Shown in pieces: positions 9,007 to 41,387 of a DNA stretch of 63,239 nucleotides (position 1 is its first letter; every line of letters begins with the position of its first letter). This stretch comes from Candidatus Pacebacteria bacterium CG10_big_fil_rev_8_21_14_0_10_44_54 (lineage in GTDB: Bacteria; Patescibacteriota; Microgenomatia; UBA1400; PJMF01). Under the pieces are notes generated by a model that was not told where the DNA came from, searched no databases, and saw only the letters and a program-made list of their open reading frames with translations. The translations under genes and the position numbers were made by a program. The stretch spans positions 326 to 63,564 of the forward strand of contig PFDI01000004.1 in the NCBI GenBank assembly GCA_002772695.1, written 5' to 3'.

Positions 9007-9957
9007 CTACTGTAGCAGTATTTTGTAGATTTTGTTCTTCTTTTCTTCGGTGAGGTGAATACAGACGAGTCCTGTCCTAGGTTGTCCATAATAGATTGCT
9101 GTTCCCAGTGGTGCGAGCAAGATAAGTACTGCGGCTGCCAAGTCCTCTTCTCCTTCGACAAATATATAGCGATGTTTTTTTTTGAGCGCAGCGGTGAGTG
9201 TCTTGGTCAGATGAATCGAAATACTACCAGCTGGATTAACCGCGAGCAGCTCTATTTGGTGATTTGGCACAACAGGTGGGTAGTAGATTTTTCTTTGGAT
9301 TCTATAATCAAAAACCGCCAGATCATGTTTCCAGCTGTTTGCCAAAAACTTCTGTAGTGATGAATCGCCAACGACTATCTGCAACCCTTTGCTACTCGTT
9401 GGTTGTTCTAGTACTTCTCCTTGAATCTCTGCAAAGAACTCTCGCTGTTTTTTATCAAGCACGATTGTTTTGGCCAGAGCCTGGTTATAGAGCCTGCCAT
9501 TGCGACTGGCAACTCCCTGACGAATACTCGTACTGCTTAGAGGCGTGCCATCACAAAGCATCACTAGCGGGACCTGCACTATTGGCAGTACAGGAAGATT
9601 TTGTTTAGTTCTTGTTTGGTTGATGATATCTGCTCCCGGCATTGTATCCGAGGAAACACAGAGCACATCTATTTTTGTGTCGCTCAATATTGTTGGTCCA
9701 AATATGTTTTTGAGCGGAAAAATTTTACATGGATAGTGTTTTTGCTTGCAGTAGTTTTCGACGTCTTTGACACGAGCGGCAAATGGTTCGAGGGTAGCTG
9801 CTGCTTGTTTTTCTAGTGATCTGGCAAACACATCTGTTGTGACTCCGATGGCAAGCTTTTCTGCGATGCTACCTGCTTCATCAATCAGCGCCTGATGCCC
9901 AAGATGAAAATGATCAAAGGTGCCACCGAGCCCCGCCAGCTTGTACTTTTTTGTCAT
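9007..9957 (-). CDS. coaD: Archaeal-type phosphopantetheine adenylyltransferase fused to a DUF359 (GTP-dependent dephospho-CoA kinase-like) domain
   Basis: GGTFDHFHLGH (HxGH), LSSTSIR, then VVGD, DYRIQR, NPAGSI, VEGEEDLA, YGQP. Confidence 0.8.
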   Translation of the reverse strand: MTKKYKLAGLGGTFDHFHLGHQALIDEAGSIAEKLAIGVTTDVFARSLEKQAAATLEPFAARVKDVENYCKQKHYPCKIFPLKNIFGPTILSDTKIDVLCVSSDTMPGADIINQTRTKQNLPVLPIVQVPLVMLCDGTPLSSTSIRQGVASRNGRLYNQALAKTIVLDKKQREFFAEIQGEVLEQPTSSKGLQIVVGDSSLQKFLANSWKHDLAVFDYRIQRKIYYPPVVPNHQIELLAVNPAGSISIHLTKTLTAALKKKHRYIFVEGEEDLAAAVLILLAPLGTAIYYGQPRTGLVCIHLTEEKKNKIYKILLQ

Positions 9958-10714
9958 GCTGTATCATACCTTCTTTTTCCAACTGCAAAAATGCGACTGC
10001 AAAATGTTTTTTGTCTCCAGTAATTTTTGCCAGCAATTCATCTTTGGTAAGCAGTGACTCTTGTGTCAGCAAGCGAATAATTTCTCCCCGAACTTGTCTG
10101 GGCGAGCCGACGAATTTTGATTGCTTGGTATAGCCTGTGCTCCTGCGGCCGTGATTACCGGTGAGTTTTTTGAGTACCGAGCCGTAATCCATCAGCGCCC
10201 AGTACCACTCGCGCGGACTTTTTCTGTCAAGGGTCGCATTTATCAATTTGAGTAGTTGCCTGTCAGATACTTTCGACTTGTTTGGAAAAAAGTGATACAA
10301 AAAAACAGTTCGAATGTTGGTCTCGATCATGGTGACAGGTAGGTTATAGCTAAAGGCACGAATTGCAGTTGCAGTATAGGGCCCGATGCCGGGGAGTTTT
10401 TCGAGTTCAGCAAGTGAGTTAGGAAATGGCTTGCCCGCTAGTTTTTGTGCACACTGGTGTAAGTATTTTGCTCGGCGGTTATAACCAAGGCCTTGCCAAA
10501 GCATCATTACTTGATATTGTTTCGCTTTTGCCAAGACAGAAATACTAGGAAATTGCTCTAGAAATGCCAGATACTTTGGGATCACTCGCTCGACTTGGGT
10601 TTGTTGCAGCATGAGCTCTGAGACGAGAATGCGGTAGGGATCGGCTGTTTTGCGCCATGGCAGATCGTGGCGACCGTAGTTTCGATACCATTTTTTAATA
10701 TAACGCTCAAACAT
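9914..10714 (-). CDS. mutY: A/G-specific adenine glycosylase lacking the [4Fe-4S] cysteines
   Basis: RHDLPWR, VSELMLQQTQV, WQGLGYNRRA, LPGIGPYTA HhH. Confidence 0.92.
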   Translation of the reverse strand: MFERYIKKWYRNYGRHDLPWRKTADPYRILVSELMLQQTQVERVIPKYLAFLEQFPSISVLAKAKQYQVMMLWQGLGYNRRAKYLHQCAQKLAGKPFPNSLAELEKLPGIGPYTATAIRAFSYNLPVTMIETNIRTVFLYHFFPNKSKVSDRQLLKLINATLDRKSPREWYWALMDYGSVLKKLTGNHGRRSTGYTKQSKFVGSPRQVRGEIIRLLTQESLLTKDELLAKITGDKKHFAVAFLQLEKEGMIQHDKKVQAGGARWHL

Positions 10715-17632: not shown

Positions 17633-18193
17633 ATGACGATCAAAGCAGGCAATATTCGCAAGGGCATGTATATTTTGTTCAAGCAAGCACCACATTTGGT
17701 GACCAAAACAGATTTTATGAGTCCCGGCAAAGGATCTGCTTTAATGCGGATAAAACTCAAGAGTATTCTTGGATCTGGAACAACTGATTTTACCTATAAA
17801 TCAAATGAAAGTGTTGAAGAAGTTGAGGTTTCAAGCAAGCAAATGCAGTATTTATATAAGGACGGCGATGAGCTTGTTTTTATGGATGGCACTACGTTTG
17901 AGCAACTGAGTGTGCCGATAGAGTTGGTTGGTGATCAACATCAATTGCTGAAGGAAGAACAGCAGGTATATGTACTTTTGTTTGATGAAAAGCCAATAGG
18001 AGTCCGTTTGCCGGACAAAGTAACACTGCTCGTATCGCATGCAGAGGATGCAGATGGAGGCAATACAGTTGGACAGGCTCGCAAAATGGTTGAGCTTGAA
18101 ACAGGTTTTTCGCTTCTCGCCCCACTTTTTGTGAAAACTGGCGACTCACTGATTATCGACACGACCTCGATGAGTTATTTTTCTCGAGCTTAA
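17633..18193 (+). CDS. efp: Elongation factor P
   Basis: SPGKGSA loop with Lys, QYLYKDG, FMD..TFEQ, PLFVKTGD. Confidence 0.95.
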   Translation: MTIKAGNIRKGMYILFKQAPHLVTKTDFMSPGKGSALMRIKLKSILGSGTTDFTYKSNESVEEVEVSSKQMQYLYKDGDELVFMDGTTFEQLSVPIELVGDQHQLLKEEQQVYVLLFDEKPIGVRLPDKVTLLVSHAEDADGGNTVGQARKMVELETGFSLLAPLFVKTGDSLIIDTTSMSYFSRA

Positions 18194-19446
18194 GCGCTCG
18201 CTTGTCGTTCGATCTCTAGCAAGCGATTATATTTGGCAACTCGCTCGCCGCGTGTTGGCCCTACTTTGATGTAGGCAGCACCAACTGCTACAGCCACATC
18301 GACCATACTGGTGTCGTTGCTTTCTCCTCCGCCACGATGCGACGGCACGATCATGAGTTTGTGTTTTTGGGCAAGTTGACAGCATTGAATAGTTTCAGTT
18401 AAGGAACCGATTTGGTTCAGTTTCACCAACACTCCAGATACAGCTTTGAGGTCAATTGCTTTTTGTAGTCGTTTGACGCTGGTGACGGTGAGATCATCAC
18501 CGATTAGTGGCACGTTGTGCTCGGCGCAAAGAGCTTGCATAATTGGCCAGTGGTCCCAGTCATCTTCGGCCAGCGGATCTTCGATACTGACAAAGGGATA
18601 TTTCTTGAGCCAATCTCGGTAGTAATCGATCATTTGTTTGGCATCAAAGTTGGTTTTCTCAAGTTTGAGATGATACATATTGTCTTGGTAGTACTCGCTT
18701 GCAGCTGGATCGATCGAAATTCCCAGATCTTTGCCTGGTTCATAGCCAGCTTGTTCGATTGCATTAACCAAAAATTGTAGCGGCTGTTCATTTGAAGTTA
18801 TTCCTCCAGGTGCAAAGGCGCCCTCATTGCCGACATTGGTAGATAAACCATTTTTTTGTAAAATCTTTTTTACTAGATGGTAGGCCTCAAGTGTCGCACG
18901 CACGTGTTCTCGGATTGGTTTGCTGCCTATAGCAGAAAGACAGAACTCTTGCAGATCAGTTGAGTTATCGGCATGTTTACCGCCTTCGACTGTCACCATC
19001 ATTGGTTTTGGCAGTGAGCGTACTGTTGGCAGCTTGAATTCTTCGAGAATGTAGAGGTAGAGCGGTTGTTTGCGACTCTGCGCTACTGCTTTGGCGTATG
19101 CGAGTGAAATGGCGAGGATTGTATTGCCACCCAGCTTTTTTTTATTTACCGTGCCGTCTATTCCAATCAAGGCGTTATCGAGCGCTGCTTGCGATACAAA
19201 GGATTGTTTGGTCAGTACTGGCGCCAGCACTTGATCAATGTGTGCGATCGCTGTCAGCATGCCATTACCGTTGTATCGATTACTATCACCGTCTACTAGT
19301 ACAGTTGCCTCGTACGAACCGGCCGAAGCACCATAGGGCACCGATGCTACCCCTGCACTACCATCAGAAAGTTCAAGGGTAACCTCGAGTGTCGGATAAC
19401 CGCCAGAGGCGATTATTTCATATGCGTTAAGAGAGGAAATATGCAT
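18190..19446 (-). CDS. eno: Enolase (divergent)
   Basis: GASAG, GGKHA, QEF, EDP, GDDL, KLNQIG, SHR, ERVAKYNRLL. Confidence 0.93.
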   Translation of the reverse strand: MHISSLNAYEIIASGGYPTLEVTLELSDGSAGVASVPYGASAGSYEATVLVDGDSNRYNGNGMLTAIAHIDQVLAPVLTKQSFVSQAALDNALIGIDGTVNKKKLGGNTILAISLAYAKAVAQSRKQPLYLYILEEFKLPTVRSLPKPMMVTVEGGKHADNSTDLQEFCLSAIGSKPIREHVRATLEAYHLVKKILQKNGLSTNVGNEGAFAPGGITSNEQPLQFLVNAIEQAGYEPGKDLGISIDPAASEYYQDNMYHLKLEKTNFDAKQMIDYYRDWLKKYPFVSIEDPLAEDDWDHWPIMQALCAEHNVPLIGDDLTVTSVKRLQKAIDLKAVSGVLVKLNQIGSLTETIQCCQLAQKHKLMIVPSHRGGGESNDTSMVDVAVAVGAAYIKVGPTRGERVAKYNRLLEIERQASA

Positions 19447-19450
19447 GCTA

Positions 19451-20443
19451 CTAGCATAGCAGTTTTTCTAGATGCTTCACCTCGTTTTTTGTCCCTACAA
19501 AAAATGGTATGCGCTGGTGCAACTCTCTTGGTTGGATCTCTAGCACGTCTAATCTACCATTGCTTGAATAGCCACCAGCTTGCTGTGTTAGGAATGCAAA
19601 GGGAATACCTTCATACAACAGCCGCAGCTTGCCGTTTGGATTTTTGTTATCCGCAGGATAGAGAAAAATACCACCCTTGAGTAAGTTGCGATGAAAGTCT
19701 GCAACAAGTGAGCCAATATATCTTGCTGAGAGGGGTTTGCCAGAATGGTTTTTACTAGTTTTATATTCACTCACTATGTGTTTAATGGCATCGTTCCACT
19801 TTGGCTCATAACTCTCATTGACACTATATATTGTTGTTATAGCAGGATAGTGAATGTTCTCATGTGAAAGTAAAAACTCACCAATCGATGGATCGAGCGT
19901 AAAGCCGTGCACCCCCTTGCCAGAAGAAAATACCAACATCGTGCTTGAGCCGTACACAATATAGCCAGCGCAAATGGCGTTTTTGCCAGCTTGTAGATAA
20001 TCTGATTTTTGCAGTTTGCCCGATTTTGATTTTCGTTTGAAAATGACAAAGTTGGTGCCGACGCTGACATTGACATCAATGTTGGACGAGCCATCAAGTG
20101 GATCTATGTGCACGATGTACTCGGCAGTATGATGAATTTTATCTGTAAAAACTACGATATTGTCTACCTCTTCGCTTCCTACCGCGGCAACGTGTGGTGA
20201 TTGCCGGAGTAGCTCGGTGAATGTTGTGTTAGCAAGTTCATCGAGCTTTTGTACCTCTTCTTTCTGAATGTTAATTTTGTCAGTTTTTCCGAGAATATCG
20301 ACCAACCCGGCCCTGTTTATTTCTCGTGAGACGATTTTTGTCGCAAGCACGATTTGAGAAATAATATTTCCTAGCTCAGTGCTTTTTTTGCTATGCGTGT
20401 GTTGCTCAAATAAAAAATTGGTGAGGTTGGTGATTTTTTTCAT
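19451..20443 (-). CDS. fbp: Class 1 fructose-1,6-bisphosphatase
   Basis: EVQKLD, DPLDGSSNIDVN, RYIGSLVADFHR, GKLRLLYE. Confidence 0.95.
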   Translation of the reverse strand: MKKITNLTNFLFEQHTHSKKSTELGNIISQIVLATKIVSREINRAGLVDILGKTDKINIQKEEVQKLDELANTTFTELLRQSPHVAAVGSEEVDNIVVFTDKIHHTAEYIVHIDPLDGSSNIDVNVSVGTNFVIFKRKSKSGKLQKSDYLQAGKNAICAGYIVYGSSTMLVFSSGKGVHGFTLDPSIGEFLLSHENIHYPAITTIYSVNESYEPKWNDAIKHIVSEYKTSKNHSGKPLSARYIGSLVADFHRNLLKGGIFLYPADNKNPNGKLRLLYEGIPFAFLTQQAGGYSSNGRLDVLEIQPRELHQRIPFFVGTKNEVKHLEKLLC

Positions 20444-20449
20444 ACACGT

Positions 20450-21502
20450 CTAGGCAATAGTAATCTTTGGTTCCAAGTACACATCTTGAATCGAGTTAAG
20501 GAGCTCAATGCCATCTTTTATCGGCTTCATGAATGCTTTTCTACCAGAGATGAGCCCCATGCCCCCCGCTCGTTTATTAATAACCGCAGTCATAACCGCC
20601 TGTTGCAGGTCATTGTCTCCGCTACTGCCACCCGAGTTGATGAGGCCAACTCTACCCATGAAGGTATTTGCAACTTGGTAACGATTCAAGTCAATTGGGT
20701 GCTCGCTGAGCAAATTGTCATACATTTTGTCGCTTTGTTTGGCAAATTTTAGATCGCGAAAGCCATAATTTGTAGTCGCTTGTTTTTGTTTGACAATATC
20801 TGCTTGAATAGTTGCTCCAAGGTAGTTGGCTTGTCCGGTGACATCAGCGGCAGTGTGGTAGTCGACATCTTTTGTTTTAAAATGTGAGTTGCGCGCATAA
20901 CACCACAGGACTGTAAACATGCCGAGATTGTGTGCCTGCTCAAATGCCTGACTTACTTCTTGAATTTGTCGCGAAGAGTGCTCGCTACCATAGTAGATAG
21001 TCGCGCCAATGCCGACCGCTCCCATCTCAAATGCTTGGTTTACACTGCCAAAAAATACCTGATCGTACTTTTGTGGGTAGCTCATCAGCTCGTTGTGGTT
21101 GAGTTTGACAATGAAAGGGATTTTGTGTGCAAATTTCCTTGATACAGAGCCAAGCGCGCCGAGCGAGGAAACAACCGCATTACAGCCACCCTCGAGCGCG
21201 AGTCTGACGATATGCTCAGGATCAAATAAATCTGGTCGGGGAGCAAACGAAACACCAGCGGTGTGTTCAATACCCTGGTCAACTGGTAAGATCGAGACGT
21301 AGCCGGTACCAGCCAACCTGCCATGACTGAAAAGTGCTTGGAGATTTCTTAGCACGGGAGGAGTGCGGTCGCTGTCAGTGAGCACTCTATCAATAAAGTC
21401 AGGACCCGGTTGATGCAGTAAGTTTTTACTTATTTTTGGATTTTTGAACTCGAGCAGGTCGGTGGCTTTTTCTGCCAAAATACTAGTTATTTTTTTATAC
21501 AT
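20450..21502 (-). CDS. fbaB: Class I fructose-bisphosphate aldolase (DhnA/FbaB)
   Basis: [42 protein letters not shown]. Confidence 0.95.
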
Positions 21503-21535: not shown

Positions 21536-22348
21536 TTACTTCCATTTTGCTACCGCTTCTTCAAAGTCACTTTGGGCGGAAATATCGTGCCATATACCTT
21601 GAAAGACAAATGCACTCAATTGTTTTTGATCGATAAGCTTTGGGATTAAGTCATGATCGATATCCATTGGTGCGTTTGCCGTGATGTAGTCAAATACGAC
21701 TTTAGAAAAAATATACAAGCCAGTATTTACCAAGCCAAGCGCATCATTTGATTCTTTAGTGGAGTAATTTACTGCGGTGTTTCCTTGAATCATTACTTGT
21801 CCATATTTGTTTTCACCCATTCTTGGTTTAACTCCAATTGTGGCGGTGTTGCTTTCTATAAAGTGAAAATCAATAAAATTTTTGAAGTTCATGTCGGTGA
21901 GAATATCTCCGTACATGAGTAAGAAGGTCGACTCTTGAATCAGTTTTTTTGCTGCTAGCAGGGCGCCAGCACTTCCCATTGGTTTTGTCTCATAGACATA
22001 CTCTATGTTGACACCCCTGTCACTGCCATTGGAAAAAATATTCTCAATTTGTCGTGAGCTTGCTTCGACACAGAGTATGATTTTTTTGAATCCATACAGT
22101 TTGAGCTGATTGATCATTATGTTGAGAAGACTTTGCCCGTGTATTTTTTTGAGCGCGATATTTCTGGTCAAAACCTTTTTGCCTCCGGCCAAAATAACTG
22201 CTGTTTCTACTTTTTGCTCAAATCCTTGGGTGATCAAAAACTCGATTGCTTGTGAACGATTGCTAATATCTGAGTAGTCGATCACAGCGTCAACTTTTTC
22301 TAATATTTCTGGCGGAAGCGTGATGGTCAATTGTTGTTTTTTTCTCAT
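21536..22348 (-). CDS. Ribbon-helix-helix DNA-binding domain fused to a degenerate sugar-phosphate nucleotidyltransferase domain
   Basis: LTITLPPEILEKVD..NRSQAIEFLI (CopG/NikR type), then AVILAGG, ETKPMGSAGA, YGDIL; GxGTRLxPLT..PKP loop degenerate. Confidence 0.8.
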   Translation of the reverse strand: MRKKQQLTITLPPEILEKVDAVIDYSDISNRSQAIEFLITQGFEQKVETAVILAGGKKVLTRNIALKKIHGQSLLNIMINQLKLYGFKKIILCVEASSRQIENIFSNGSDRGVNIEYVYETKPMGSAGALLAAKKLIQESTFLLMYGDILTDMNFKNFIDFHFIESNTATIGVKPRMGENKYGQVMIQGNTAVNYSTKESNDALGLVNTGLYIFSKVVFDYITANAPMDIDHDLIPKLIDQKQLSAFVFQGIWHDISAQSDFEEAVAKWK

Positions 22349-23610
22349 GCGAGCAAGGGTTCAAGCCCTGGTAGTTTTTTGCCGGTCAAGAACTCAAGAG
22401 CTGCCCCGCCCGAAGCCGAAACGTTATCGAACCTGCCTTGGAGACTAAAGTGTTGCACAGCGTTGATTGTGTCGCCTCCACCAATGGTGGTAACAGCACT
22501 TGTTTTGGCCACAGCACTCGCTACAGCATGGGTGCCCTCGGCAAATCCGGTTTGCTCAAATACTCCCATGGGACCGTTCCAAAAAACAGTATGAGCTTGC
22601 AGAATAATGTCACGATATAGTCGTTGTGTTTTTGGTCCAATATCAAGAAACATTAAATCTTTACTCAGTCCCTCCTCTGTCTCGCTGGTAAGTGATACAA
22701 CTCGCTTGCTTTTTGGATTATTCATTGCAGTAGCAGCGATTACATCTGAAGGATAAATAATTTTTGGCAAAGGAATATAGCCGTTGAGCAGCATTTTTTC
22801 GATCTTGTTGGTATTCATGAGATCAAGTGCGACCTCAACAAAATTTGCTCCGTTGGTTGATTTTTCTGTCGGCGCACAGTCTTCTAGGTATGAATTGCAA
22901 ATATCGATACCTTGGGCCTTAATAAAGTTGTTTGCTACGCCCCCACCAACGAGTACTACGTCCGAAATTTTTGTCAAATTGCGTATGGCTTCTATTTTGC
23001 CAGATATTTTTGCCCCACCGACGATAGAGACAAACGGATGCTTTGGGTTTTGTAGTAGTTTTTGGAGCACATGGTATTCCTGTTCCATGGCAGGTCCTGC
23101 AAAAGCGGGTAGCAACTGTGCGACCCCTGCGACGCTCGCGTGTTTTCTATGAGTTGTAGAGAAACTTTCATTGACAAAAATATCTGCGAAACTTGCAAGT
23201 TCTTGCGCGAGCGAGTTGTCGTTTTTTGATTCTCTAGGATCAAATCGAGTGTTTTCTAGAATCAACACTTCTCTTTTTTGCAGTCGTGAGACAGCTTGTT
23301 TGGCCATTTCACCAGTCAGGGCTTTGCATGATATCACCGCTTGCCCAAGAAGATGCTCGAGGTGCTCTGCCATGGGTTTGAGTCGTAAATTTTCGTCAAC
23401 TTTTCCTTTTGGCCTGCCTGCATGCGAAACTATGATTACTTTGCAGTTGTTTTTGAGCAACATCTGGATTGTTGGCACCGTGATTTGAATACGCGTATCC
23501 TCTGCAACAACAATTTTTTCTCCAATTTTTTTGAGTGGAACATTGTAATCGACCTTAAGCAAAACTGTTTTGTTTCTGACTTGTTCGGGGGTAATTACTT
23601 TGAGTGTCAT
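22345..23610 (-). CDS. pgk: Phosphoglycerate kinase
   Basis: VDYNVP, SHAGRP, LENTRF, GGAKISGK, WNGPMG, GGGDT, SGGAALE. Confidence 0.96.
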   Translation of the reverse strand: MTLKVITPEQVRNKTVLLKVDYNVPLKKIGEKIVVAEDTRIQITVPTIQMLLKNNCKVIIVSHAGRPKGKVDENLRLKPMAEHLEHLLGQAVISCKALTGEMAKQAVSRLQKREVLILENTRFDPRESKNDNSLAQELASFADIFVNESFSTTHRKHASVAGVAQLLPAFAGPAMEQEYHVLQKLLQNPKHPFVSIVGGAKISGKIEAIRNLTKISDVVLVGGGVANNFIKAQGIDICNSYLEDCAPTEKSTNGANFVEVALDLMNTNKIEKMLLNGYIPLPKIIYPSDVIAATAMNNPKSKRVVSLTSETEEGLSKDLMFLDIGPKTQRLYRDIILQAHTVFWNGPMGVFEQTGFAEGTHAVASAVAKTSAVTTIGGGDTINAVQHFSLQGRFDNVSASGGAALEFLTGKKLPGLEPLLA

Positions 23611-23673
23611 ATAGTGTCATACAATATATAGCATAGATGTGTATTTGTGCAACTTGGTTATTGGTAATGCAAG

Positions 23674-23695
23674 GATTGTTCGAGCTCAAACAATC
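23674..23695. promoter_or_regulatory. 22-bp palindrome in the pgk/VIT1 divergent promoter region (candidate operator)
   Basis: GATTGTT-C-GAGCTC-A-AACAATC, one mismatched pair. Confidence 0.45.
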
Positions 23696-23716
23696 TGCCA
23701 CACTATATTGCATACA

Positions 23717-24244
23717 ATGTCACATTCTTTTGATCCAAAACTTTTGAAAGCAGCAGTATATGGGGCCAACGATGGTATCGTCACCACCTTCGCGGTTGTT
23801 GCAGGAGTAGCTGGCGCTCAATTGTCTTCCAATATTGTGATTATTCTCGGTATAGCCAACATGATTGCTGACGGCATGGCAATGGGGCTAGGTGACTTTC
23901 TCGGTGAACAGTCAGAACAACACATGCGACAAAAACAAACAGGGCGCTCTACCACTTCAGGTTTGTGGAAATCAGGTTTAGTGACGTTTGTTTCATTTGT
24001 GCTTGCTGGCTCTATGCCACTGGCTCCTTATTTTTTGGCAGCAATTGGTGTGAAAGTGCCGAGCGAGTCTGTGTTTGATTTTTCTATACTATCGACTATG
24101 GGCGCGCTTTTTTTTGTCGGTTCGATTAGGACGAAGTTTTCTGATATCAATTGGTTTGTAGGAGGACTGCAGATGCTGGGTATTGGCGCCATTGCTGCAT
24201 CAGCAGCTTATTTCTTTGGGGCTTGGTTGGAGCCGATGTTATAA
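23717..24244 (+). CDS. VIT1/CCC1 family Fe/Mn transporter; start reassigned to ATG 23717
   Basis: YGANDGIVTTFAVVAGV, GIANMIADGMAMGLGDFL, GSMPLAP. Confidence 0.9.
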   Translation: MSHSFDPKLLKAAVYGANDGIVTTFAVVAGVAGAQLSSNIVIILGIANMIADGMAMGLGDFLGEQSEQHMRQKQTGRSTTSGLWKSGLVTFVSFVLAGSMPLAPYFLAAIGVKVPSESVFDFSILSTMGALFFVGSIRTKFSDINWFVGGLQMLGIGAIAASAAYFFGAWLEPML

Positions 24245-40625: not shown

Positions 40626-41387
40626 ATGATGGATGGTGTACGCGTTATTGTTTTGGCAGGAGGGCTTGGTACCCGGATGGGCGGTGAGCTGCCAAAAGTG
40701 TTAACACCCCTCAATAATAAGCCGATCATTGGTTATTTGGTCGCAGAGCTCGCCAAACTTCATTTGCCACACTCCCCCACAATAATCGTTGGAGCCAAGG
40801 CAGAGATGGTACGAGAGTACTTGGGTCCCGAGTACCACTATGTACAACAGCCGCAACAACTTGGGACGGGCCACGCAGTTGGCTGTGCTCGAGAGGAGTT
40901 GCTCGGGACCGCAGATACTATCGTCACTCTATACGGAGATCACCCATTAGTTACGGCAAAAATGGTAAAACGTTTGGTCGAGAAGCATTGTGAGGAACAG
41001 CCAGCTATGACACTTGGAGTTGTGAAAGTACCAGATTTTCAAGATTGGAGAAAGGCGCTCATCAACTTTGGTCGGGTTGTACGCAATGCCGATGGAAGTG
41101 TTGGGAGAATTGTTGAGTTCAAGGATGCGACTGAGGCAGAAAAAAATATTACCGAAGTAAATCCGAGCTATTTTTGTTTTTCGTCGGAGTGGTTGTGGGA
41201 GAATATTACCAAACTAAGTAACTACAATGCACAGCAAGAATACTATCTCACTGATCTGCTTAAGGCTGCTTTTGACCAAGGGGAAAAGGTGGCAACTATC
41301 CAAATTGAACCACAAGAAGCACTCGGTATCAATACACCAGAAGAACTAGCCAAAGTTGCTGAGTTTATGGAGCAAAAGCAAGTTTAG
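40626..41387 (+). CDS. GlmU-type N-terminal nucleotidyltransferase domain only
   Basis: LAGGLGTRM..LPKVL, QQLGTGHAV, YGDHP, IVEFKDA, EYYLTD, GIN. Confidence 0.85.
   Translation: MMDGVRVIVLAGGLGTRMGGELPKVLTPLNNKPIIGYLVAELAKLHLPHSPTIIVGAKAEMVREYLGPEYHYVQQPQQLGTGHAVGCAREELLGTADTIVTLYGDHPLVTAKMVKRLVEKHCEEQPAMTLGVVKVPDFQDWRKALINFGRVVRNADGSVGRIVEFKDATEAEKNITEVNPSYFCFSSEWLWENITKLSNYNAQQEYYLTDLLKAAFDQGEKVATIQIEPQEALGINTPEELAKVAEFMEQKQV

Follow-up and report, generated by a model that had tools for sequence, protein, structure and literature searches.

Ribbon-helix-helix (RHH) proteins such as CopG, omega, Arc and MetJ bind short tandem or inverted repeats cooperatively, with ~10-bp phasing, at promoters. 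In NikR, where a C-terminal ligand domain controls the RHH head, an R-x-T-x-T strand is said to contact a GTATGA half-site (in structure 2hzv, reportedly that of Schreiter et al. 2006). Here we describe a gene in which a NikR-like head is joined instead to a sugar-1-phosphate nucleotidyltransferase (NT) fold whose nucleoside triphosphate (NTP)-binding loop has decayed. The gene, hereafter RHH-NT, is a 270-residue open reading frame (ORF) at positions 21536-22348 on the minus strand of a 63,239-nt stretch of contig PFDI01000004.1 from Candidatus Pacebacteria bacterium CG10_big_fil_rev_8_21_14_0_10_44_54, a groundwater bacterium with a very small genome; 'the window' refers to this whole stretch at its full length. 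Comparison with relatives indicates that it probably encodes a one-component, metabolite-responsive repressor, using the decayed sugar-nucleotidyltransferase fold as sensor and controlling its own gluconeogenesis operon. Full-text literature searches found no description of a regulator combining RHH with a sugar nucleotidyltransferase. The protein is not a NikR, nor, judged by its signature loop, is it a working sugar nucleotidyltransferase.

The likeness to NikR extends to the type of RHH domain, the family's R-x-T-x-T strand, an NRSxAI motif in helix 2, the half-site, and a C-terminal ligand domain that would control the RHH head. GTATGA is the half-site of the E. coli NikR operator, GTATGA-N16-TCATAC (PMC7055735). 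The RHH-NT boxes differ in their layout (direct repeats separated by N4, inverted ones by N3-5), the protein has no match to the ACT-like nickel domain NikR_C but an NTP_transferase domain at residues 50-268 instead, its inferred regulon concerns sugar metabolism rather than nickel, and this particular copy has Gln6 in place of Arg. The predicted RHH fold is shared also with CopG, omega, Arc and MetJ (a match to CopG structure 2cpg, a KKRLTITLS strand), but these are mostly plasmid or phage regulators of ~45-100 aa that lack a large ligand domain, MetJ using S-adenosylmethionine directly.

The C-terminal part invites comparison with GMPPA, GalF and the gamma and epsilon subunits of eIF2B, decayed enzyme homologues of the same fold (Foldseek, 7d72_A) that keep a ligand pocket and serve as sensors or regulators. 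GMPPA binds GDP-mannose and throttles GMPPB. All of these lack a DNA-binding domain and work through allosteric contacts between proteins, whereas the output of RHH-NT would be transcription. A functional parallel is CggR, the SorC-family repressor of Bacillus, which lies within a lower-glycolysis operon (cggR-gapA-pgk-tpi-pgm-eno) and whose sensor likewise derives from a sugar-phosphate enzyme fold. The two are not homologous: CggR joins a winged-helix head to a sugar-isomerase-like domain that binds fructose 1,6-bisphosphate (FBP), and neither domain has a Pfam or NCBIfam match in the RHH-NT protein. BirA, PutA and NadR also place enzyme and repressor in one polypeptide, PutA even with an RHH domain, but they retain catalysis, while most RHH-NT members have a decayed loop.

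Domain architecture of RHH-NT

The gene and its parts are as follows.

21536-22348, minus strand: RHH-NT fusion gene (ORF list, Pfam, NCBIfam, AlphaFold2 (AF2) model, 45 full-length homologues aligned)
22208-22336, minus strand: NikR/CopG-type RHH domain, residues 5-47 (30-orthologue profile, alignment, AF2 helices)
21539-22204, minus strand: sugar-1-phosphate nucleotidyltransferase-fold domain, residues 49-270, proposed ligand sensor (PF00483, Foldseek)
22145-22186, minus strand: degenerate NTP-binding loop, residues 55-68, GGKKVLTRNIALKK (alignments, pLDDT)

As a single sequence, the N terminus matches Pfam RHH_1 (0.029, residues 7-41) and NCBIfam NikR TIGR02793 (0.0013, residues 5-46) weakly. 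The domain is assigned by a profile of the N-terminal 48 residues of 30 orthologues, which matches the NikR structures 1q5v (E. coli, E 8.8e-9) and 2bj1 (P. horikoshii, 6e-5) as well as CopG 2cpg (2e-3); RHH_1 itself is matched in 29 of the 30, and the CopG/NikR-like N terminus proposed in the first-pass annotation is thereby borne out. The strand here reads QLTITL and helix 2 includes NRSQAIE, with modelled helices at residues 13-22 and 31-42 and a 6-residue linker before the nucleotidyltransferase fold. Across the RHH-NT family the strand is R-x-T-x-T (R/K at 98%, T/S at 97-99%), and in this copy Q-x-T-x-T. The RHH is the best-conserved region in alignments of the family, conservation being higher at its DNA-face residues than in the enzyme core, and R/K6, T/S8, T/S10, D20, N30, R31, S32 and E36 are conserved equally in members with degenerate and with canonical loops.

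Residues 50-268 match Pfam NTP_transferase (PF00483) at E 3.7e-27 (95.9 bits, cut-off 21.2). The AF2 model (pLDDT 88, pTM 0.81) consists of two N-terminal helices followed by a Rossmann-like nucleotidyltransferase fold, and its best PDB neighbours by Foldseek, at E about 1e-19, are VTC1, GDP-mannose pyrophosphorylases including GMPPB, HddC and MurU. Scores in the best 25 of 30 matched NCBIfam models lie far below the equivalog cut-offs, the highest being 91 bits vs 440.

The loop Arg and Lys of RmlA- and GlmU-type enzymes keep the phosphates of the NTP, and the pyrophosphate that leaves, in place. In an alignment with 16 plain enzymes and 171 relatives that have the RHH, residues 55-66 of RHH-NT (GGKKVLTRNIAL) resolve into GGKKVL, a 6-residue gap relative to canonical relatives, and TRNIAL. 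Leu here takes the place of the G-x-G-T-R Arg, whose column is invariant (100%) in canonical relatives, and the P-K columns, 100% P-K in canonical RHH and non-RHH relatives, hold N63 and I64. Residues 59-61, with pLDDT <50, are the sole disordered part of the model. Decay extends to the E-K-P motif (Glu to Thr197) and to the Gly of W-x-D-x-G (Ser257). The original observation of a reduced loop that had lost its usual Arg and Lys was therefore accurate, with Leu and Ile in those columns and a 6-residue deletion, and the comparator then chosen, at 40626, does have LAGGLGTRM....PK.

Other parts persist: G55-G56, the nucleoside motif E..P.G[ST]AG, D148, N208/G210/Y212, W253 and D255. Within the clade of the query, W253 and D255 never vary, N208, G210 and Y212 hardly do, and at least 90% of members have a new V-K-P-R motif (K174, R176) that occurs in none of the canonical-loop members. 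Degenerate members as a whole keep the Lys of E-K-P in 66%, D255 in 57% and G257 in 9%. The pattern is what would be expected of a domain that binds a nucleoside-sugar-like ligand without turnover.

Size and spread of the family

A word-indexed search returned 45 full-length relatives at 33-62% identity, and an exhaustive HMMER search added >100 further 50%-identity clusters with alignments starting at residue 1-5. The RHH is present in 182 of the 269 relatives retrieved. Among the 171 full-length RHH relatives the loop is degenerate in 140, reduced to P-K only in 16, and canonical or nearly so in 15, which keep all catalytic motifs; since the fusion and the decay are this frequent, RHH-NT is not a local accident. 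A quick FastTree phylogeny of the enzyme domain, sampled with a bias toward the query, requires 19 changes to account for the degenerate state, at least seven of them forced by well-supported branches, and places the query in a supported clade of 57 rows (51 degenerate, 6 P-K only). Taken together with the 140 of 171 degenerate loops, these well-supported changes point to relaxed selection on catalysis.

Conservation across the candidate phyla radiation (CPR) and DPANN had been proposed as a check on the family. RHH-NT does occur there, in metagenome-assembled genomes (MAGs) labelled Patescibacteria (Paceibacterota, Microgenomates, Woesebacteria) and among proteins that the sources assign to Woesearchaeota or Nanoarchaeota (strand K-I-S-I-T-L, degenerate loop), but it is also found in MAGs labelled Thermoanaerobaculia/Acidobacteriota, Chloroflexota, Zixibacteria and Planctomycetota. 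Occurrence is patchy at close range: searches located the gene in none of four same-genus genomes and in six of 24 same-family genomes. The sources name relatives 'NDP-sugar pyrophosphorylase' or 'mannose-1-phosphate guanylyltransferase'. As an aside on labelling, the records of twelve loci (L024-L026, L033, L035, L037, L039, L040, L042, L050, L058, L069) are titled 'uncultured Pseudomonadales' despite Patescibacteria gene content; these labels look wrong, many contigs are concerned, and one isolate name includes PATE.

GTATGA boxes in related loci

The 5' side of the gene or its operon contains a shared element of tandem boxes, with consensus AAAGTATGA-AAAA-GTATGA and a 10-bp period; inverted forms such as GTATGA-N5-TCATAC occur in L025, L027, L053 and L015. 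Scanning 41 related loci (418 kb) from Patescibacteria, Acidobacteriota, Chloroflexota and Zixibacteria for [GA]TATGA-N3-5-[GA]TATG, direct or inverted, gave 54 occurrences on the gene strand, where block shuffles average 7.5 for both strands together; shuffles were used because AGTATGA reads identically backwards, which makes a reversed-sequence control invalid. In 32 loci a box falls within the 250 nt that precede the start of the gene or operon, and boxes precede the gene or operon in 36 of the 41 in all. In L035, L036, L038 and L069, where pgk precedes the regulator as it does here, the box is 27-42 nt before pgk. Many loci (L029, L034, L049, L053, L055) have a clear TTGACA-N17-TATGAT promoter directly before the boxes, a position that fits a repressor. 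Between the boxes and the regulator start codon of L031 there are also ~7 tandem copies of GGATTA (L031:3113-3170).

Boxes and gene also co-occur at the level of whole genomes. Among 41 related genomes, exact RTATGA-N4-RTATGA occurs 16 times, vs 4 for a control pattern, in the seven that hold the gene, and 12 times, vs 14, in the 34 that do not; the control pattern is weak in the same way as the reversed control, and the contrast between gene-positive and gene-negative genomes is more reliable. Boxes of the GTATGAnnAAGTATGA type are found only in the gene-positive genomes of this set.

The DNA-binding role seems older than the loop decay, because near-canonical-loop relatives from metagenomes that have an R-L/I-T-I-T strand also have boxes (L089, L091, L092, L094, L097). 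Members with a K-V-A-I-T or R-V-T-L-T strand have other upstream repeats (L088, L154, L090).

The local operon and its predicted operator

Around RHH-NT, the window contains the following features.

22345-23610, minus strand: pgk, first gene of the operon and a second, regulator-linked copy (PF00162)
20450-21502, minus strand: class-I (DeoC/LacD-type) fructose-bisphosphate aldolase, fbaI (PF01791)
19451-20443, minus strand: class-I fructose-1,6-bisphosphatase, fbp (PF00316 + PF18913)
18190-19446, minus strand: enolase, last gene of the operon, with a second copy on C1 (PF00113 + PF03952)
23607-23622, minus strand: predicted operator, tandem GTATGA-CACT-ATATGA, GTATGACACTATATGA (family pattern, position weight matrix (PWM), comparative position)
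23623-23651, minus strand: promoter-like site TGCACA-17-TATATT, ending at the predicted operator (consensus scan, 9/12 matches)
23674-23695, no strand assigned: near-perfect 22-bp palindrome, unique in the 844-kb genome and without GTATGA boxes

Reading along the minus strand, the order is pgk > RHH-NT > fbaI > fbp > eno. The RHH-NT ATG and the pgk stop overlap by 4 nt, and the gaps after RHH-NT are 3 to 33 nt. Pfam thus agrees with the initial placement of the gene between pgk and fbaB-fbp-eno, the neighbours being pgk, class-I aldolase, class-I fructose-1,6-bisphosphatase (FBPase) and enolase.

The predicted operator is the sole exact N4 (10-bp) match to the family pattern in the genome, and by PWM it ranks second genome-wide, the top match being intragenic. 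A relaxed pattern adds two matches spaced N3 or N5, one on C16, which is intragenic, and one on C22; the PWM scan of the genome gave no further convincing intergenic site, its other top matches being intragenic, and the phosphoglucomutase/phosphomannomutase (PGM/PMM) gene on C1 has one good box only, at the start codon. The pgk ATG (23610-23608) lies within the second box, so that the pgk message would be nearly leaderless. Boxes occupy a comparable position upstream of pgk in L035, L036, L038, L069 and L082. The second local box begins with A rather than G (ATATGA), which, speculatively, would fit the Gln-for-Arg swap at position 6. The adjoining promoter-like site, at 9/12 matches, is no better than those in shuffled sequence.

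A box-like GTATGATACAGCATGA (one mismatch, PWM 18.9) also occurs at 9954-9969 on the minus strand, at the start of a CTP_transf_like + DUF359 gene (9007-9957); its ATG falls in the second box, as at pgk, and it may be there by chance, ~1 such match being expected per window.

The palindrome at 23674-23695 had been put forward as a binding site. It is real, but we reject it as the family operator, as it occurs once in the genome, lacks GTATGA and is nearer to a VIT1 gene; the likely operator is at 23607-23622. This gene, of the VIT1 iron/manganese transporter family, is at 23715-24244 on the plus strand, and similar genes adjoin the pgk-regulator pair at L011:5417-5962 and L014:8676-9149. The palindrome may belong to VIT1, which starts ~20 nt further on.

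The operon is an additional, regulator-linked set with a history of its own, since the window pgk resembles regulator-linked pgk rather than that of congeners and another pgk is present on C9. The window pgk is 42-44% identical to the pgk of congeners and 58-59% identical to RHH-NT-linked pgk in other genomes, whereas the C9 copy (C9:4930-6156) is 80-82% identical to the congeners' gene. The genome also has an enolase beside a cofactor-independent phosphoglycerate mutase (iPGM) gene (C1:10161-13111) and a class-II aldolase (C21). A search of four congeners did not find the pgk > regulator > fbaI > fbp > eno operon, and the composition of the operon shows no sign of foreign origin (GC 0.41-0.47). 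Its direction would most likely be gluconeogenic, because it includes an FBPase and an FbaB-like aldolase.

Inferred regulon

Across loci the regulator is directly linked to pgk, class-II aldolase, GlpX, iPGM and a glyceraldehyde-3-phosphate dehydrogenase-like gene; in two genomes it is linked to glycosyltransferases with a divergent sugar epimerase/dehydratase. The boxes themselves reach further. In G018, with the regulator at the head of a glycosyltransferase cluster, boxes lie 18-33 nt ahead of pgk in a pgk-fbaI operon on a different contig, and the aldolase that follows is 73% identical to the window aldolase. Boxes precede glpX-fbaII in L042 and L044; they lie between holA and a PGM/PMM gene in L028, L037, L041, L044, L051, L058, L081, L083 and L085, and adjoin PGM/PMM in L091, making at least 10 PGM/PMM loci with boxes in all. 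The genome G009 has boxes also before a uridine kinase (udk) and MFS transporter, before a cytidylate-kinase-like gene, and before SurE with a divergent NUDIX-enolase pair. The regulon would thus comprise pgk, fba, glpX/fbp, iPGM and PGM/PMM. What its members share is the path that leads from triose phosphates to nucleotide sugars by way of FBP, fructose 6-phosphate (F6P) and hexose-1-phosphates, and because the path ends there a nucleotide sugar or sugar-1-phosphate would be the favoured ligand.

Several further observations concern the neighbours of the regulator. In L012 (7989-8804) and L013 (6357-7181), from G005 and G018 of the same family, it heads a PMT_2 + GT4 cluster divergent from a sugar epimerase/dehydratase, and the upstream boxes are weak or otherwise arranged (TCATAC-N3-ATATGA in L012). 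At least 10 Patescibacteria loci (L023:4876-5913, L028:4823-5905, L042:4480-5526 and seven more) have, immediately upstream of the regulator, a gene for a secreted ~345-aa protein, 50-86% identical between loci and with NE and ITETGW motifs; the present genome has its own copy at C1:1204-2181. The L023 protein has no Pfam or PDB sequence match. An AF2 model (pLDDT 75) resembles the (beta/alpha)8 glycoside hydrolases of clan GH-A, the best being PslG (5bx9, E 1e-9), and on this model it is probably an undescribed family of exopolysaccharide or glycan hydrolases. A ~400-aa membrane protein with 5-6 hydrophobic segments precedes regulator-iPGM pairs at L040:4585-5793, L031:1874-3073 and L047:984-2156; the L040 protein has no Pfam or PDB match.

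Proposed mechanism

We propose that the NikR-type head forms a dimer that recognises tandem GTATGA boxes with 10-bp spacing, in this genome GTATGACACTATATGA, which directly follows the operon's predicted -10 and overlaps the pgk start. Such binding would stop pgk > regulator > fbaI > fbp > eno from being transcribed, repression being favoured over activation, and because the operon contains its gene RHH-NT would control its own synthesis. With the loop Arg and Lys gone and the nucleoside pocket (LGTAGA-like motif) and sugar pocket (NTGxY, FQGxWxD) kept, the nucleotidyltransferase fold would most likely no longer make nucleotide sugars but bind one, or a sugar-1-phosphate. The 6-residue linker and the flexible loop could relay occupancy to the RHH, and the logic would be end-product control of the path from triose phosphates via FBP, F6P and hexose-1-phosphate to NDP-sugar. 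The earlier idea of a one-component transcription factor over central sugar metabolism is in this way strengthened, by the boxes in 36 of 41 loci, the NikR half-site together with R-x-T-x-T, the co-occurrence of gene and boxes, and the inferred regulon.

Several observations weigh against this proposal. Arg, the DNA contact of NikR, is found at position 6 in all 29 other loci, while this protein, which has the sole Q at that position among the 30 aligned orthologues, and its closest relative (P0002) have Gln6. The domain keeps D148 and D255, the metal-binding Asp residues, and K198, the sugar-phosphate Lys. The predicted operator scores 20 bits by PWM vs a family median of 29, and with <=1 mismatch the pattern occurs twice in the window against 1.0 expected; as the window alone shows no enrichment, the local operator rests on comparative position. 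Five of the 41 loci have no box upstream of the gene or operon, those of L037, L041 and L051 being only at the holA-PGM/PMM junction, and the locus counts are not independent because the loci are kin. Finally, a sequencing-run search found the locus in groundwater and aquifer metagenome DNA, two of these metagenomes being possible sources of it, and no RNA run is listed as carrying it.

Alternative explanations

The strongest alternative is a trigger enzyme, that is, a working nucleotidyltransferase, perhaps slow or unusual, whose RHH lets it repress its operon as well. The alignment does include relatives in which the catalytic motifs are complete (GGxGTRLRPxTYExPK, GD, FxEKP, WxDxGT), near-canonical ones also have GTATGA boxes (L089, L091, L092), and since D148, K198 and D255 are retained here residual catalysis is possible. 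The description 'pseudo-nucleotidyltransferase' in the first-pass annotation accordingly holds for the decay of the loop, while for activity, given these retained residues, it is better read as 'presumably inactive'. Yet the loop that binds and orients the NTP is six residues shorter and has neither of the basic catalytic residues; it has been lost in 140 of 171 members, with at least seven well-supported changes on the tree; and the genome has intact nucleotidyltransferases elsewhere, e.g. at 40626. We consider a trigger enzyme unlikely on balance, and a decayed sensor the better account of the fold.

It might also be that the GTATGA boxes are bound not by RHH-NT but by another co-occurring factor, or that they act as a leader element at the RNA level. 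At the regulator, pgk and glpX almost all boxes follow the -10 and precede the start codon on the coding strand, and from this location they would be transcribed. At PGM/PMM, on the other hand, they are on the strand opposite the gene in at least 8 loci, and L025, L027, L053 and L015 have inverted repeats; recognition as DNA therefore fits, and an RNA-level role or another factor is unlikely. The box half-site is moreover that of NikR, the RHH strand shows the NikR contact pattern, and the boxes track the presence of the gene. Altogether we give this explanation very little weight compared with binding by RHH-NT itself.

Still harder to sustain is a pseudoenzyme that does not bind DNA, acting as regulatory partner of a true nucleotidyltransferase in the manner of GalF or GMPPA, with the RHH serving only for dimerisation. 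The GMPPA and GMPPB structures 7d72 and 7d74 are among the closest by Foldseek, and Gln replaces Arg at the DNA-contact position 6 in this copy, but the conserved boxes and their co-occurrence with the gene would be left unexplained, and the DNA-face residues of the RHH are better conserved than the enzyme core. Least credible of all is the public annotation, an ordinary sugar-1-phosphate nucleotidyltransferase with an irrelevant N-terminal extension, which has the source names of relatives and a Pfam match well above threshold in its favour, but which is contradicted by NCBIfam equivalog scores far under the cut-offs (91 vs 440 bits), the absence of the signature loop and an N-terminal domain that is the most conserved part of the protein, and leaves the GTATGA boxes unexplained.

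Implications

The reading preferred here, a repressor with a decayed nucleotidyltransferase as sensor, may be one case of something larger. Tentatively, and with rather more reserve than for the local gene, RHH-NT may represent a large unpublished family of transcription factors in CPR, DPANN and other phyla, in which a sugar nucleotidyltransferase repeatedly (at least seven times) lost catalysis and became the sensor of an RHH repressor, reading the pool of nucleotide sugars or hexose-1-phosphates and setting gluconeogenic and nucleotide-salvage flux through GTATGA boxes; in the present genome it would come with a horizontally acquired, self-controlled pgk-fbaI-fbp-eno cassette.

Almost nothing is known of how the stripped-down central metabolism of Patescibacteria is regulated, and RHH-NT is annotated everywhere as an enzyme. 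If our reading is correct, there would be a named regulator with a precise operator, GTATGA-N4-GTATGA, and a computable regulon, through which the supply of cell-envelope sugars would be coupled to lower glycolysis/gluconeogenesis, FBPase, aldolase and PGM/PMM, with nucleoside salvage added in some genomes. It could be tested with one purified protein and short DNA fragments, with no need to culture the organism. It would also correct a systematic mis-annotation that inflates the apparent nucleotide-sugar capacity of such genomes, and would provide a clear example of how an enzyme becomes a sensor, its family including forms that look active as well as decayed ones.

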